DNA of 5,974 bases. Source: a virus. The notes beneath the pieces were generated by a model, which ran no database searches, was not told the DNA's origin, and saw only the letters and a list, made by a program, of their open reading frames with translations. This document shows positions 2,915 to 5,247 of the stretch, one piece after another. The first letter of the stretch is position 1; every line of letters starts with the position of its first letter. The DNA lies in the IMG/VR virus record IMGVR_UViG_3300020041_000021, positions 1-5,974 of that record, one strand, 5' to 3'. Position numbers and translations under genes: made by a program.

Positions 2915-4168
2915 ATGGCTGTTCCTGTTGCCTCCGCCGCGTCTTTTGGTCAGTCCCTCGGCCAGGCTGCCGCCTCTACGGGTACTACAGGCTTAATCTC
3001 TGGTGCCCTCGGGCAACTTTTCGGCGGCATGAATGCCCGTCGCCAATGGCGTTATCAACAGAAACAGATGAAGCTTCAGCAGCAGTATGCTCTTGAGCAA
3101 ATGCAGAAGCAATCAGAACTTTCTTACGCTAATTGGCAGAAACAATTTGATTACGAAAACGCCTACAATGACCCTTCAAAGGTCTTCGACCGCTATTTGA
3201 AGGCCGGCGTAACACCCGCCGCTGTTTTAGGCTCTTCGGGCGTCGGCGTTAATGCTACCATGTCCGGCGGCTCTGCCCCTATGCCTTCCGCCTCTGGCCC
3301 TACTGGTGGTTCGCCCGTCGCCCCCGGTGGTTTCGCCGCTGCTGACCCTACTGCTATCGCGCAGAATATGGTCGCGCGTTCTACGGTCGACCGTAATACT
3401 GCTGCTGCTAATCGAGATGATGCAGAAGCTGACCTCATGAGAGGTAATACTCATAGTGCAGACTGGCGAAAGGATATGGACGCGCTGGAGAAGAAATCTT
3501 TAGAGTATAACATCGATAATGCTTCTGAATTGATTCGCCTTAATCGCGCTTTGGCTGACATCCATGCAGCTGATGCTGAATACGCTGACCTTATGGCTAC
3601 ATACAAGTTTCAAGATTTTGTTGCCATGTATTCGAAGCATGTCGAGGAGGCGAGTCAGATTAAGAAATACAATGATAAATATTTCGATTCCGTTTATGCC
3701 GCTCAAATCGCTCGAGATTTTGCTGCTGCTTACGAATCTGCCGCTTCCGGCGATGTCTTAAATGTTGAGTCTGAAGTACGTAAGGTTAATTTAGCTGACC
3801 TTCGTGAATGGTTTTCCCTGAACTGGGATTCTGAGATTGATGTTCCGGAGGTTGACGAGAAAGGTAAGCCTACTGGTAAAACGACAAAGATGACAGGTCG
3901 TCAGATTCATCAGAGGTTAATGGGTCTCGCTGCCTCGGAAGGAGAGCAAAGCCTCTCGGGCCGTTGGTTTCAGAATCGCTCCAGTAAGAATGCTTTTGGC
4001 TATAGTTTGGCTAGAACTGCCTTGGTTGGCGCTATGGCCGTTGCCGGCACGGCCGCGACAAAGCGTCCCGTTTCTGTTGGTTATGATGAAGAGAGGGAAG
4101 CTTACAACAGAGACGGTGAATTTGTTGGAGGCACGAGAGTATCCCGTCGTCATTTGAGGAAAAATTGA
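2915..4168 (+). CDS. VP2: DNA pilot / minor capsid protein (VP2, gene H-like), 417 aa
   Basis: The N-terminus is Gly/Ala-rich and hydrophobic. A Q-rich helical segment follows, then NDPSKVFDRYLKAGVTPAAVLG (aa 85-106), which matches the AGLNP-type motif common in microvirus pilot proteins. A G/S/P-rich linker covers aa 105-146, followed by a long helical charged region. The size and second-largest-ORF status fit VP2. Confidence 0.8.
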   Translation: MAVPVASAASFGQSLGQAAASTGTTGLISGALGQLFGGMNARRQWRYQQKQMKLQQQYALEQMQKQSELSYANWQKQFDYENAYNDPSKVFDRYLKAGVTPAAVLGSSGVGVNATMSGGSAPMPSASGPTGGSPVAPGGFAAADPTAIAQNMVARSTVDRNTAAANRDDAEADLMRGNTHSADWRKDMDALEKKSLEYNIDNASELIRLNRALADIHAADAEYADLMATYKFQDFVAMYSKHVEEASQIKKYNDKYFDSVYAAQIARDFAAAYESAASGDVLNVESEVRKVNLADLREWFSLNWDSEIDVPEVDEKGKPTGKTTKMTGRQIHQRLMGLAASEGEQSLSGRWFQNRSSKNAFGYSLARTALVGAMAVAGTAATKRPVSVGYDEEREAYNRDGEFVGGTRVSRRHLRKN

Positions 4169-4249: not shown

Positions 4250-4570
4250 ATGAAAAAGGTAAGTAAAAAATCCCGAATCAATGATTTGATGATTGACGTT
4301 GTTGAGTATGCTTTCACCGAGTGGCTTGTTCGTCAAGGCATATTCACTTCTTTTAAGGTAAACTATGAGAGCACTGTTTCTCCCTATCGGAGCTTCCGCG
4401 ACCGCCTTCGCGCTCATATTCGGCGTTCTCTTTGTAGCCCTGGCTTTGATCCGAGTACCTTAATTTCCTCTGCCTTCTTATTTGCTGCGACACCCGAGGG
4501 TGTTGATTTTTGGGAAAAGCAGTCAGCTGCTTGGGAGCTTTTTTACGTGAGATTACAAACAAGACTTTAA
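4250..4570 (+). CDS. Hypothetical protein, 106 aa (ORFan)
   Basis: ATG-to-TAA ORF on the coding strand that fills the gap between VP2 and the next ORF. It has a basic N-terminus (MKKVSKKSR) and an aromatic C-terminal segment (TPEGVDFWEKQSAAWELFY). I do not recognise a family. Confidence 0.6.
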   Translation: MKKVSKKSRINDLMIDVVEYAFTEWLVRQGIFTSFKVNYESTVSPYRSFRDRLRAHIRRSLCSPGFDPSTLISSAFLFAATPEGVDFWEKQSAAWELFYVRLQTRL

Positions 4571-4581
4571 ATTATATTACT

Positions 4582-4905
4582 ATGACAGAAATTCATGTTG
4601 TTATCCGTCGAATTAACCCGGCCATCAAAATTGACCTTGTCCAGGTAGGGCGTCTCAAAGATTGTCAATTTGAACCCCTTCCTTCTAGTGCTATCGCGAA
4701 TTCTCCTATTTCCTGCTTTTTGAAGAGTTCGAATATCTGCGACTCAGCTTACGTCGACCATTCGGATGTCTCCAACCTCATTGCCGCCTGCGAAGGTCTT
4801 CCTGGTTTTGACATTGAATTTTTCGACAATACGATTATTCTCATTTTTGACTTTGAACTTAACTGCGATGAAATCACGACGAAAGAAAAAGACTCGGGGA
4901 ACTAA
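4582..4905 (+). CDS. Hypothetical acidic protein, 107 aa (ORFan)
   Basis: The ATG at 4582 lies 11 nt after the preceding stop and is preferred over the alternative-start extension at 4510, which would overlap the upstream gene. The protein is net acidic with 5 Cys. I do not recognise a family. Confidence 0.55.
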   Translation: MTEIHVVIRRINPAIKIDLVQVGRLKDCQFEPLPSSAIANSPISCFLKSSNICDSAYVDHSDVSNLIAACEGLPGFDIEFFDNTIILIFDFELNCDEITTKEKDSGN

Positions 4906-4926
4906 AATCGTTACCCGTCCGCTTGG

Positions 4927-4937
4927 TGGAAGAGTTC
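4927..4937 (+). repeat. Intergenic 11-mer TGGAAGAGTTC, copy 2
   Basis: Exact match to 2634-2644. It ends 11 nt upstream of the three-way junction element. Confidence 0.7.
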
Positions 4938-4948
4938 TTTAGTTATTT

Positions 4949-5012
4949 GAACCACAGGGGACAGCCGAAGGCTGTGGCCACCGCGAAGCGGTAAGGTACC
5001 CCCCTGTGGTTC
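4949..5012 (+). other. 64-nt three-way junction (Y-shaped) structure with two GAA-triloop hairpins, a candidate ssDNA origin or recognition element
   Basis: A perfect 12-bp closing stem pairs GAACCACAGGGG (4949-4960) with CCCCTGTGGTTC (5001-5012). Hairpin 1 is ACAGCC-GAA-GGCTGT (4961-4975). Hairpin 2 is ACCGC-GAA-GCGGT (4980-4992) and can be extended by CC/GG pairs across an AA bulge. GCGAAGC sits at 4983-4989. Confidence 0.75.
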
Positions 5013-5043
5013 TTCCGCTTAACCCCTAAATACCCTTTTTTTT

Positions 5044-5247
5044 ATGGATTACTTTGACCCCTTTCGTCCTCGCTTTTCGCCTGTTGTTAACTCTATCCCA
5101 TATCGTTACTCTGTAGGTGCTTATCGCGGCAAGAAGCGCGTGGTTATCGCCTGGTTCTCCGACGAACAGGCCGCTGCGGATTACTGTCGTCGCCTTCGCT
5201 CTGAACGTCCTTATATCAAATTCGATTATGTTCAATCTTTACTGTAG
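5044..5247 (+). CDS. Small basic hypothetical protein, 67 aa
   Basis: ATG-to-TAG ORF immediately upstream of Rep, with its stop overlapping the proposed Rep GTG start (TAGTG). It is net basic. The segment GKKRVVIAWFSDEQAAADY weakly resembles the strand-helix end of AP2-type DNA-binding domains. Confidence 0.55.
   Translation: MDYFDPFRPRFSPVVNSIPYRYSVGAYRGKKRVVIAWFSDEQAAADYCRRLRSERPYIKFDYVQSLL

Follow-up and report, generated by a model that had tools for sequence, protein, structure and literature searches.

A portable mini-hairpin cassette within a terminator-like hairpin of a gut microvirus: a candidate signal for complementary-strand priming

Introduction

In microviruses, which are among the most abundant phages of the gut and the ocean, the conversion of the injected single-stranded genome to double-stranded DNA is understood only for phiX174 and G4. 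Among the closest described systems are the primase-dependent oric sites of G4, St-1, phiK and alpha3 (Bullavirinae), which belong to the same virus family as the phage analysed here. The mini-hairpin of oric reads GCGAAAGC in G4 and GCGTTAGC in St-1 and alpha3 (PMC13037366). According to two sources, DNA hairpins of the d(C-GNA-G) type greatly surpass the corresponding RNA hairpins in thermal stability and nuclease resistance, depend on the C:G closing pair, sit at the complementary-strand origins of G4, St-1 and alpha3 and at the ssiA signal of RSF1010, and bind SSB poorly when two of them are consecutive (PMC13037366; PMC3201870). The connection between mini-hairpins of the d(GCGAAGC) type and ssDNA priming sites is documented for G4, St-1, alpha3 and RSF1010 ssiA (PMC13037366).

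The primosome assembly site of phiX174 (PriA n' site) and the sso cassettes of rolling-circle plasmids (ssoA, ssoT, ssoU and ssoW) are likewise structured, orientation-dependent non-coding ssDNA signals. The sso signals are exchangeable, vary independently of the plasmid Rep and are not absolutely required. Among small microviruses, the reekeekee- and roodoodoo-microviruses have predicted, conserved hairpins between the late genes and Rep that show compensatory substitutions and have been proposed as the start of the negative strand; the 2022 study that pointed to them stated that their function "cannot be certified" (PMC9865509). Our literature search found no paper connecting mini-hairpins with Microviridae.

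Results

The window, that is, the whole stretch of DNA analysed (5,974 nt; IMG/VR record IMGVR_UViG_3300020041_000021), comprises the complete circular genome (5855 nt, the other 119 nt being a terminal overlap) of a small gut phage, a microvirus with an ssDNA genome whose genes all lie on the plus strand. The element under study, 64 nt long, had been assigned to the region between VP2 and Rep. This placement is wrong: VP2, the pilot protein, occupies 2915-4168, and the element lies elsewhere, behind a small J-like ORF and 31 nt upstream of a 67-aa ORF (5044-5247) that precedes Rep, with the Rep ORF about 235 nt downstream of the element. The features of the locus are as follows.

4868-4942, plus strand: J-like ORF of 24 aa, highly basic, translated as MKSRRKKKTRGTKIVTRPLGGRVL; the element begins 6 nt past the stop of this ORF
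4949-4960, plus strand: 5' arm of the outer stem, GAACCACAGGGG; covaries and shares homology with the corresponding arm of plain, terminator-like hairpin alpha in relatives
4961-4975, plus strand: hairpin 1, ACAGCC-GAA-GGCTGT, with the DNA mini-hairpin sequence CCGAAGG as its core; supported by the fold and by compensatory changes
4976-4979, plus strand: junction linker GGCC, invariant in 20 of 20 type-A sequences
4980-4992, plus strand: hairpin 2, ACCGC-GAA-GCGGT, containing d(GCGAAGC); supported by the fold and invariant in type A
4993-5000, plus strand: junction linker AAGGTACC, mostly AAGG(T/G)AC across type A
5001-5012, plus strand: 3' arm of the outer stem, CCCCTGTGGTTC; covaries
5013-5043, plus strand: T-rich tail (by T counts) and conserved flank, ending where the next ORF begins with its ATG

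In the relatives, synonymous changes preserve the J-like peptide and its stop position is fixed, be it TAG, TAA or TGA. An upstream 17-mer, GGTGGAAGAGTTCTTTA, was considered as conserved non-coding sequence and dropped, as it is the C-terminal coding sequence of this ORF. By computation, the element is the sole strongly structured non-coding site of the window genome. It is not alone in being non-coding: a second structured non-coding region, 2590-2721, is conserved equally, and universally. Its first part, 2590-2625 (CTTTACTTGACGATATATGC), is a universally conserved non-coding sequence that adjoins a conserved hairpin.

The perfect 12-bp outer stem seen in the first-pass annotation is exact in its coordinates, and both enclosed hairpins are indeed capped by C-GAA-G, with the CGAAG of hairpin 1 at 4966-4970 and the heptamer GCGAAGC of hairpin 2 at 4983-4989. 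Folded as DNA, positions 4940-5020 give exactly the three-way junction at -23.8 kcal/mol, against a mean of -11.05 kcal/mol (sd 2.5) for dinucleotide shuffles, none of which folds equally well (0/200; z = -5.1). The RNA fold of the element is also strong (-41 kcal/mol, z = -4.4). With nearest-neighbour energies, whose models carry no stability bonus for mini-hairpins, DNA and RNA and the plus and minus strands all fold equally well in silico, so that the energy comparison discriminates neither between DNA and RNA nor between strands. The minimum free energy fold contains in addition a weak pairing of 4994-4997 with 4977-4979, which is lost in 3 of 20 sequences, and a one-base bulge in the 3' arm, present in most relatives, is lost in the window. 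An extension of the outer stem by GGAAGA and TCTTCC was rejected, for it is unconserved in the other types and overlaps coding sequence.

Both hairpins show the d(C-GNA-G) signature of DNA mini-hairpins, namely a G-N-A triloop, the type that forms a sheared G.A pair, C:G closure and a short GC-rich stem. Among the 18 perfect hairpins of the genome (at least 5 bp, loop of 3-5 nt) the C-GNA-G form is found only in these two. An Rfam 15 covariance-model scan of the whole window (E up to 1) gave no match.

In comparison with seven relatives, identity is 91.3% for the element and averages 70.9% over the genome, which puts the element at the 99.7th percentile of 64-nt segments. Related genomes keep its stems and show covariation in them, a check that the first-pass annotation had proposed: 98.9% of pair cells are standard and nine pairs are doubly changed. 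None of 500 shuffles matches the observed pairing or the double changes, a statistic that is inflated by the kinship among the aligned sequences, and only 39-52% of positions pair when the partners are slid by 1-3 columns. Within type A, compensatory changes affect the outer stem, mostly through a few sequences (MG945790, L223 and L095), and hairpin 1, where G:C is replaced by A:T in five sequences and A:T by G:C in two. Hairpin 1 of OM869680 and of MG945151 has C:G exchanged for G:C. Hairpin 2 shows zero variation within type A and covaries in sequences gathered without selecting on it (ACCCAC-GAA-GTGGGT, ACCGGC-GTA-GCCGGT and ACCAACACC-GAA-GGTGATGGT). The same twin hairpins are enclosed by four unrelated outer-stem sequences. 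The loops, too, are kept, staying G-N-A (GAA or GTA), and the closing C:G pair is retained in 19/20 and 20/20 relatives for the two hairpins, with other stem positions covarying.

The three-way junction is real, is under selection and folds in the plus-sense nucleic acid. In this regard, the non-Watson-Crick pairs are G.T wobbles on the plus strand, and none of the A.C type was seen. Along the same lines, 80 complete oriented genomes hold 57 triloop hairpins of the C-GNA-G form versus 5 of the C-TNC-G form (13 versus 5 when only distinct ones are counted), and C-TNC-G hairpins are this scarce despite T making up 32% of the plus strand.

In every relative a plain hairpin with a T-run, here called hairpin alpha, stands directly after the J-like gene, and the outer stem of the junction is homologous to it. 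Since this terminator-like hairpin is universal, the junction is a composite and no dedicated origin. By this homology, the outer stem is the hairpin alpha of the lineage, which follows the last late gene, the J-like ORF, and most likely acts as intrinsic terminator of the late transcript; the two inner hairpins with the GGCC linker between them are, by sequence comparison, a portable cassette inserted in its loop. The first eight bases after the stem contain four T in the window and a mean of 5.3 in type-A relatives, similar to plain hairpin alpha. A terminator scan calls the homologous plain hairpin of a "simple" relative and does not call the element, as the loop of the latter exceeds 8 nt. 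The loops of the plain terminator hairpins vary freely, and none reads G-N-A.

The cassette is modular. Distant microviruses (VP1 identity 22%) carry it elsewhere in the genome, always in plus orientation, a near-identical core sequence occurs in genomes with 19-22% VP1 identity, and the GGCC linker is found also in OM869680, MG945151 and MG945243. In MG945151, a genome without the J-like/small-ORF spacer, the cassette lies in the other intergenic region with no T-run after it. In OM869680 (22% VP1 identity) a separate canonical terminator with T8 comes first and the cassette follows downstream, with a tail of its own that reads TATTTTT.

A non-homologous sister junction (type B) is present in 40 of 77 distinct relatives, and most close relatives have it in place of the cassette of the window. 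It lies downstream of the terminator hairpin, has no T-run, and carries in loop 1 the sequence G-N-A, with A, C, G or T as N; both of its loops stand behind fixed C:G closing pairs. Loop 2 is GTTA, GCTA, GTCA, GTTAA or GTTGA; its pyrimidine at position 3 breaks the GNRA rule of RNA and fits d(GCGNAGC)/d(GCGNNAGC). No mini-hairpin cassette of any type is found in the genomes of ten distinct close relatives and of the more divergent clade members. Given that some close relatives have another cassette and others lack one altogether, the cassette is accessory and cannot be the only or an indispensable complementary-strand origin of this lineage; its role, of whatever kind, can be dispensed with, to judge by the relatives that have no cassette.

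The type of cassette is also independent of Rep. Rep identity is equal within and between cassette types, the nearest Rep neighbour carries another type in 34 of 76 cases, and the Rep closest to that of the window (91.6%) belongs to a genome with the other cassette. No transposase, target duplication or repeated copies were found within any genome examined.

Discussion

G4-type oric and the present element are alike in being non-coding sites on the packaged plus strand, built of adjacent stable hairpins, a mini-hairpin included, and the C-GTTA-G cap is shared by hairpin 2 of the sister cassette. Homology in sequence to the G4, St-1 and alpha3 origins was not found, nor any similarity to G4 3884-4019. 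In G4, three separate hairpins follow one another and a CTG start is present, whereas the element has two hairpins within a common stem and no CTG primase start on its 3' side, where the flank reads TTCCGCTTAACCCC. A single CTG occurs, within the 3' arm, and MG945790 does not share it; the CTG rule is specific to E. coli DnaG, so its absence weighs little. A further difference from G4-type oric is that the element sits within a terminator-like hairpin and that close relatives do without it. The ssiA hairpin of RSF1010, whose single-strand initiation signals are ssiA and ssiB, has the same CCGAAGG mini-hairpin cap as hairpin 1 of the window and is a strand- and orientation-specific priming signal (PMC13037366), but it is a single hairpin read by the plasmid-encoded primase RepB', and the window contains neither a primase-like ORF or domain nor any ORF of sufficient size for a primase.

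Concerning the sso cassettes, their modularity matches the shuffled and patchy distribution found here. Neither they nor the n' site of phiX174 have a mini-hairpin signature or a three-way junction with twin triloops, and the conserved RSB and CS-6 motifs of sso are absent from the element. With intrinsic terminators, such as the intergenic hairpins of phiX174, the outer stem shares its GC richness, its position just after a stop (6 nt) and the T-rich tail; unlike them, the element has a loop of 41 nt with two conserved, loop-constrained hairpins and a weak T-run (4/8). The hairpins of the reekeekee- and roodoodoo-microviruses are simple, 13-64 nt long and unrelated in sequence, with no mini-hairpin loops, junction or mobility reported (PMC9865509). 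The promoters of the N4 virion RNA polymerase are formed in ssDNA by a stem of 5-7 bp with a 3-nt GAA or GGA loop, which the polymerase recognises (PMC13037366); N4, however, has its own giant RNA polymerase and extrudes its hairpins from duplex DNA, and a microvirus encodes nothing of this kind. In a scan with the sigma-70 consensus, no promoter-like site overlaps 4949-5012, and by the same consensus the element shows no mimicry of -35/-10 boxes like that of the M13/f1-type origin hairpins.

We propose, at a probability of roughly 0.45, that the cassette is an accessory, exchangeable and SSB-resistant ssDNA signal that would most likely serve complementary-strand priming. In the injected or packaged plus strand, both C-GAA-G mini-hairpins would adopt exceptionally stable DNA structures, which host SSB would probably neither melt nor coat. 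As a result, a fixed and protein-accessible three-way junction could be presented on the SSB-coated circle, to which a priming enzyme of the host (primase, RNA polymerase or a PriA-type primosome) might be recruited and there begin complementary-strand synthesis. The cassette would act in this scheme as an exchangeable, non-essential efficiency module, like the sso/ssi signals of rolling-circle plasmids. A further step, to be taken only tentatively, is that microviruses swap small, self-contained mini-hairpin cassettes, three-way junctions with both arms capped by G-N-A or G-N-N-A mini-hairpins, as plug-in, orientation-dependent complementary-strand origins, each an SSB-proof landing pad on the injected strand. 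The proposal of the first-pass annotation, a strong candidate for the minus-strand origin or another ssDNA signal, stands as regards fold, conservation and covariation, and is weakened by the composite make-up of the element, its accessory character, its mislabelled context and the second conserved region. In this regard, the 2590-2721 region could hold the actual origin or origins, which counts against a priming role of the element.

Selection may also act on the transcript, which includes the element because all genes lie on the plus strand. Under this explanation, which we consider unlikely, the junction would be a branched intrinsic terminator and/or a protector of the late-mRNA 3' end and, where the cassette stands alone, a stabiliser of the 5'-UTR of the Rep transcript, with the inner hairpins merely adding stability or faster folding. 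The strong RNA fold agrees with it, as do the homology of the outer stem to a plain GC-rich hairpin with T-run after the last late gene of all relatives, the terminator call in the "simple" relative and the T-rich tails of type A and OM869680. It leaves unexplained, however, the G-N-A and G-N-N-A loops behind invariant C:G pairs: the loops of the plain terminator hairpin of relatives vary and are never G-N-A, loop 2 of the sister junction breaks the GNRA rule, and hairpins of this sort are much more stable as DNA than as RNA (PMC13037366). The sister junction, moreover, stands beyond the terminator hairpin without a T-run, the cassette of MG945151 has no T-run either, and that of OM869680 is already preceded by its canonical T8 terminator; in the window itself, a structured loop of 41 nt is atypical of intrinsic terminators and the tail has just four T in eight.

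The patchy distribution of the cassette, its near-identical core at 19-22% VP1 identity, its varying genomic position and the close relatives that dispense with it would also suit a mobile palindromic ssDNA module with another benefit to the phage or none, either a selfish insert spread by recombination or a device for condensation or packaging with the J-like protein, for nuclease resistance or for evasion of ssDNA-sensing defence; in the window, the element does adjoin the gene of the basic J-like DNA-binding peptide. We nevertheless hold this to be improbable, as the compensatory evolution and the fixed identities of loops and closing pairs denote long-term selection on the fold, beyond mere spread, and no transposase, target duplication or within-genome repeat accompanies the cassette. 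No known defence or anti-defence mechanism matches, and packaging in phiX-type microviruses is not known to require a structured signal. Finally, hairpin recognition is widespread among the HUH endonucleases of ssDNA elements, and the element lies upstream of the Rep ORF, which could make the junction the plus-strand (double-strand) origin, bound and nicked by Rep to begin and finish rolling-circle synthesis. This is very improbable indeed, given that cassette type is uncorrelated with Rep sequence, a 91.6%-identical Rep adjoining a different cassette and some relatives having none, that loops of 3 nt are too small for a nick motif, and that CTTTACTTGACGATATATGC, beside its conserved hairpin, is a better candidate.

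The element offers a synthesisable candidate of 64 nt together with a sequence rule (G-N-A loops, C:G closure, twin arms, plus orientation), and close relatives with a different cassette or none are at hand as natural controls. If the cassette is a priming signal, the mini-hairpin principle of G4 and RSF1010 would be general, such signals would move as cassettes between unrelated phages, and they would serve, in microvirus genomes from metagenomes, as a marker of which strand is packaged and where the replication module lies. The plug-in origin, if true, would give microviruses beyond the phiX/G4 group their first defined negative-strand origin, a viral counterpart of the interchangeable sso signals, able to nest in a terminator hairpin without destroying the terminator. 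If the element is merely a decorated terminator, it is a curiosity.

As for the host, VP1 relatives were absent from 185,579 species genomes in a prophage search with single-protein and alignment queries; the window genome lacks Shine-Dalgarno motifs, which together with the gut sources gives only a hint of Bacteroidota. A metagenome scan with the 18-mer GGCCACCGCGAAGCGGTA, a pattern too short to be specific, gave at least about 120 matches; among those listed, four were microviruses and the rest random GC-rich bacterial sequence. An IMG/VR scan with the sister-cassette hairpin GAAGRCGCGNAGCGYCC returned clade members and chance matches in GC-rich contigs. An unbiased scan of IMG/VR with hairpin 1 and the linker added just two genomes, so that the cassette is rare in that collection, and the matches of the element in a BLAST search against phage records were confined to microviruses of the same group.

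Genome organization and the intergenic junction

The window comprises a complete circular microvirus genome of 5855 nt plus a 119-nt terminal overlap (5974 bases in total), and every gene lies on its + strand, which is T-rich (31%).

Features of the genome
466-2280, +: VP1, capsid protein
2590-2721: second non-coding region, equal to the junction in conservation and found in 87 of 88 clade genomes
2915-4168, +: VP2, pilot protein
4868-4942, +: J-like ORF, 24 aa, very basic, unannotated, translation MKSRRKKKTRGTKIVTRPLGGRVL
4949-5012, +: three-way junction, a 12-bp outer stem enclosing hairpin 1 (4961-4975) and hairpin 2 (4980-4992)
5044-5247, +: 67-aa ORF, followed by Rep
about 5247 or 5379 to 462, +: Rep, crossing the circle junction

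The coordinates of the junction in the first-pass annotation proved exact, but its placement between VP2 and Rep was wrong: the element starts 6 nt past the stop of the J-like ORF, and is followed 3' by the 67-aa ORF and then Rep. Folded as DNA, positions 4940-5020 give the three-way junction described there at -23.8 kcal/mol (z = -5.1), whereas dinucleotide shuffles average -11.05 and none of 200 matches the real fold. The genome contains 18 perfect hairpins (at least 5 bp, loops of 3-5 nt), and the two in the junction are the only ones of the C-GNA-G type.

Our results show that this + strand fold is under selection. Aligned over its whole length with seven relatives, the genome averages 70.9% identity, whereas the element reaches 91.3%, at the 99.7th percentile of 64-nt windows. 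Among 20 distinct sequences sharing the window's layout (type A), the stems are kept with compensatory changes: 98.9% of pair cells are standard and nine pairs show double-sided changes, a level reached by 0 of 500 shuffles (a test inflated by the kinship of the sequences), and shifting partners by 1-3 columns lowers pairing to 39-52%. In hairpin 1, five sequences replace G:C by A:T and two replace A:T by G:C. The outer stem, whose signal comes largely from few sequences, is wholly changed in MG945790 and L223, where it remains complementary, and elsewhere shows one G.T wobble (+ strand) and one compensatory change in L095. Hairpin 2 is invariant within the type-A set; in sequences gathered without selecting on it, it covaries with loop and closing pair kept (ACCCAC-GAA-GTGGGT, ACCGGC-GTA-GCCGGT and ACCAACACC-GAA-GGTGATGGT). 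These statistics, together with independent recovery across several studies, rule out chance or an assembly artefact.

Composite architecture and mobility

Uncultured gut microviruses, sampled from pig, civet, musk deer and rodents, form the large group in which the genome falls. Its sequence matches 66 GenBank phage records, seven of which cover more than 80% of it at 72-78% identity, and has at least 172 relatives in IMG/VR. The region from the J-like gene to Rep, extracted from 77 distinct relatives, is modular. A GC-rich, terminator-like hairpin, here hairpin alpha, directly follows the J-like stop in all 77; its loop varies freely, never with G-N-A, and a T-run comes after it (mean 5.1-5.4 T in 8 in the main types). 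In a relative of the simplest layout, a terminator scan calls it with 11 pairs and the tail CTTTTTCTTT.

Layouts of the J-like gene to Rep region in 77 relatives
Type A (the window), 18/77: twin hairpins nested in hairpin alpha
Type B, 40/77: plain hairpin alpha and a separate three-way junction downstream
Type C, 9/77: another structured module, GATATCGCGGACGCGAGATC...
Simple, 10/77: hairpin alpha alone

A covariance model of the window junction finds full matches in 22 genomes only; elsewhere its hits are weak, about 50 nt long, and run from one end of the model to the other, with hairpin alpha aligned to the outer stem and the interior deleted. This alignment indicates that the window's outer stem is the terminator-like hairpin of the lineage and that the twin hairpins have been inserted into its loop. 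These hairpins and their linker form a cassette. Full genomes of the simple layout lack a mini-hairpin cassette at any position, as do more divergent clade members (VP1 identity 51-58%).

The type B cassette, the most informative case, repeats the window's architecture with non-homologous sequence. Its outer stem occurs as GCTCGA/TCGAGC and, with covariation, as GGCCGA/TCGGCC and GCCCGA/TCGGGC, its hairpin 1 is GACGC-GNA-GCGTC with all four bases observed at N, and its hairpin 2, CGGCC-GTTA-GGCCG, has one stem pair in three covarying states and the loop variants GTTA, GCTA, GTCA, GTTAA and GTTGA. Pairing holds in 99.6% of cells (slid controls, 16-48%), with double changes in 37 cells and essentially fixed closing C:G pairs. 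Since this junction lies downstream of hairpin alpha (in L010, about 115-160 nt past the J-like stop) and lacks a T-run after it, we rejected it as a terminator. It is flanked by more conserved hairpins, ACCGG-TTTA-CCGGT and GCGCTCGAAAG...CTTTCGAAGCGC.

The cassette also occurs in other positions. In MG945151, of the same clade (regions 1-120 and 3469-3545), the next ATG follows the J-like stop at a distance of 1 nt and the usual spacer is missing; a twin-GAA cassette with its own outer stem and no T-run after it lies in the other intergenic region, at the 3' end of another gene whose frame it extends, upstream of the universal conserved region. In OM869680, a rodent microvirus with a different gene order (VP1 22% identical), it follows a separate canonical terminator with T8 and once more folds as a three-way junction, closed by an outer stem of unrelated sequence, and in MG945243, which has gokushovirus gene order (VP1 19% identical), GGCCACCGCGAAGCGGTG occurs after the Rep gene amid other hairpins. 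Orientation is identical in all three and in the window. The comparison indicates that the cassette is mobile. A position-independent, orientation-dependent role on a circular single strand is what complementary-strand initiation would predict; an operon terminator fits less well.

Strand preference extends to the GC-rich perfect hairpins of 80 complete genomes oriented by VP1, where C-GNA-G triloops outnumber the mirror C-TNC-G by 57 to 5 (13 against 5 distinct) despite T being the commonest + strand base, and where pentaloops bounded by G and A number 29 against 4 of the mirror form. A C-GGA-G hairpin, GGTTC-GGA-GAACC, recurs in seven genomes (L226-L302), about 3079-3775 nt past the J-like stop.

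Proposed role of the junction

Cassette loops begin with G, end with A, leave the middle bases free and are closed by C:G, which is precisely how the d(GCGNAGC)/d(GCGNNAGC) mini-hairpins are defined. This rule, together with pyrimidines at loop position 3 that break the RNA GNRA rule, points to DNA rather than RNA; the unconstrained loops of hairpin alpha provide the contrast. In this regard, RNA versions are much less stable, as reviewed in 2026 by the discoverers of mini-hairpins (PMC13037366), and dependence on the closing pair is documented as well (PMC3201870). The phages G4 (GCGAAAGC), St-1 and alpha3 (both GCGTTAGC) have mini-hairpin sequences at their complementary-strand origins, RSF1010 ssiA contains CCGAAGG, and single-strand binding protein (SSB) binds poorly to a fragment with two consecutive mini-hairpins (PMC13037366). 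The CCGAAGG of ssiA is identical to the core of window hairpin 1.

These findings lead us to favor, with a probability of about 0.45, an accessory, exchangeable ssDNA signal on the + strand that most likely primes the complementary strand. On injected DNA, the twin mini-hairpins would remain folded and SSB-free, providing a host priming enzyme with a fixed structure at which to start the complementary strand; in the transcript, the outer stem would also serve as the late terminator. The junction would then work most like the origins of G4, St-1 and alpha3 and RSF1010 ssiA. It is nevertheless not a member of those families: it shares no homology and differs in architecture, with neither the CTG start of the phage origins nor the element-encoded primase of ssiA. 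The M13 complementary-strand origin tolerates viable deletions, and the sso cassettes of rolling-circle plasmids are dispensable and exchangeable; a patchy distribution is thus compatible with priming, and the effect of the cassette on the phage may be modest.

A branched terminator or stabiliser acting purely at the RNA level would explain the outer stem, but we consider it rather unlikely, as it leaves the loop rules and the stand-alone cassettes unexplained. Less probable still is that the cassette has some other role in ssDNA or is selfish and mobile; this fits the mobility and sits poorly with long-term selection on the fold. The idea of the junction as the + strand origin recognised by Rep was rejected and is very improbable, because layout is independent of Rep similarity: Rep identity is equal within and between layouts (0.80-0.87), the nearest Rep neighbour has a different layout in 34 of 76 cases, and the window's closest Rep (91.6%) adjoins the sister, type B cassette.

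The second non-coding region, 2590-2721, is a much better candidate for the Rep site, and a candidate + strand origin or universal replication element. Identity in its 64-nt windows rises to 0.92, compared with a mean of 0.71 for the genome. It reads CTTTACTTGACGATATATGC (also given as CTTTACTTGACGATATATGCTACGTG), continues with a long, imperfect conserved hairpin, GCGCGGACCCC...GGAGAGGCCGCGC, whose inner helix covaries, and then TTTTTC. ACTTGA at 2600, a single copy in the genome, faintly recalls the phiX/G4 origin CAACTTG|ATATT, and the region bears a faint resemblance to the Bullavirinae origin CAACTTGATATTAATAAC, whose 30-mer we confirmed in the G4 sequence. The same region could also hold a universal complementary-strand origin, which is the main reason for caution about a priming role of the junction.

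The junction matches no Rfam family, and our literature search found nothing tying mini-hairpins to Microviridae; the closest earlier case is a hairpin predicted, but not certified, in other small microviruses (PMC9865509). The structural and comparative evidence is solid, the function is inferred and the cassette is dispensable. As a candidate complementary-strand origin, the junction lends itself to direct testing.

Small ORFs and host

The J-like ORF overlaps the 3' end of ORF 4510-4905 in a different frame; across relatives its peptide is kept through synonymous changes and its stop position is fixed, as TAG, TAA or TGA. The ORF probably corresponds to the J protein of phiX and G4 and encodes the J-like DNA-binding protein of this lineage. 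Shine-Dalgarno-like sequences are absent upstream of all window genes, whose leaders are A/T-rich; taken with the gut origin of the samples, this hints at a Bacteroidota host. Two scans of reference genomes for prophage relatives gave no match. Neither Pfam nor PHROG has a match for the 67-aa ORF, which to the eye looks like an AP2-type DNA-binding domain (YRGKKRVVIAWF..EQAAADY); its ATG is conserved among relatives, and the ORF is deleted in L057, L090 and MG945664. The TTG-started ORF 2602-2913 probably has its true start at an ATG near 2722.
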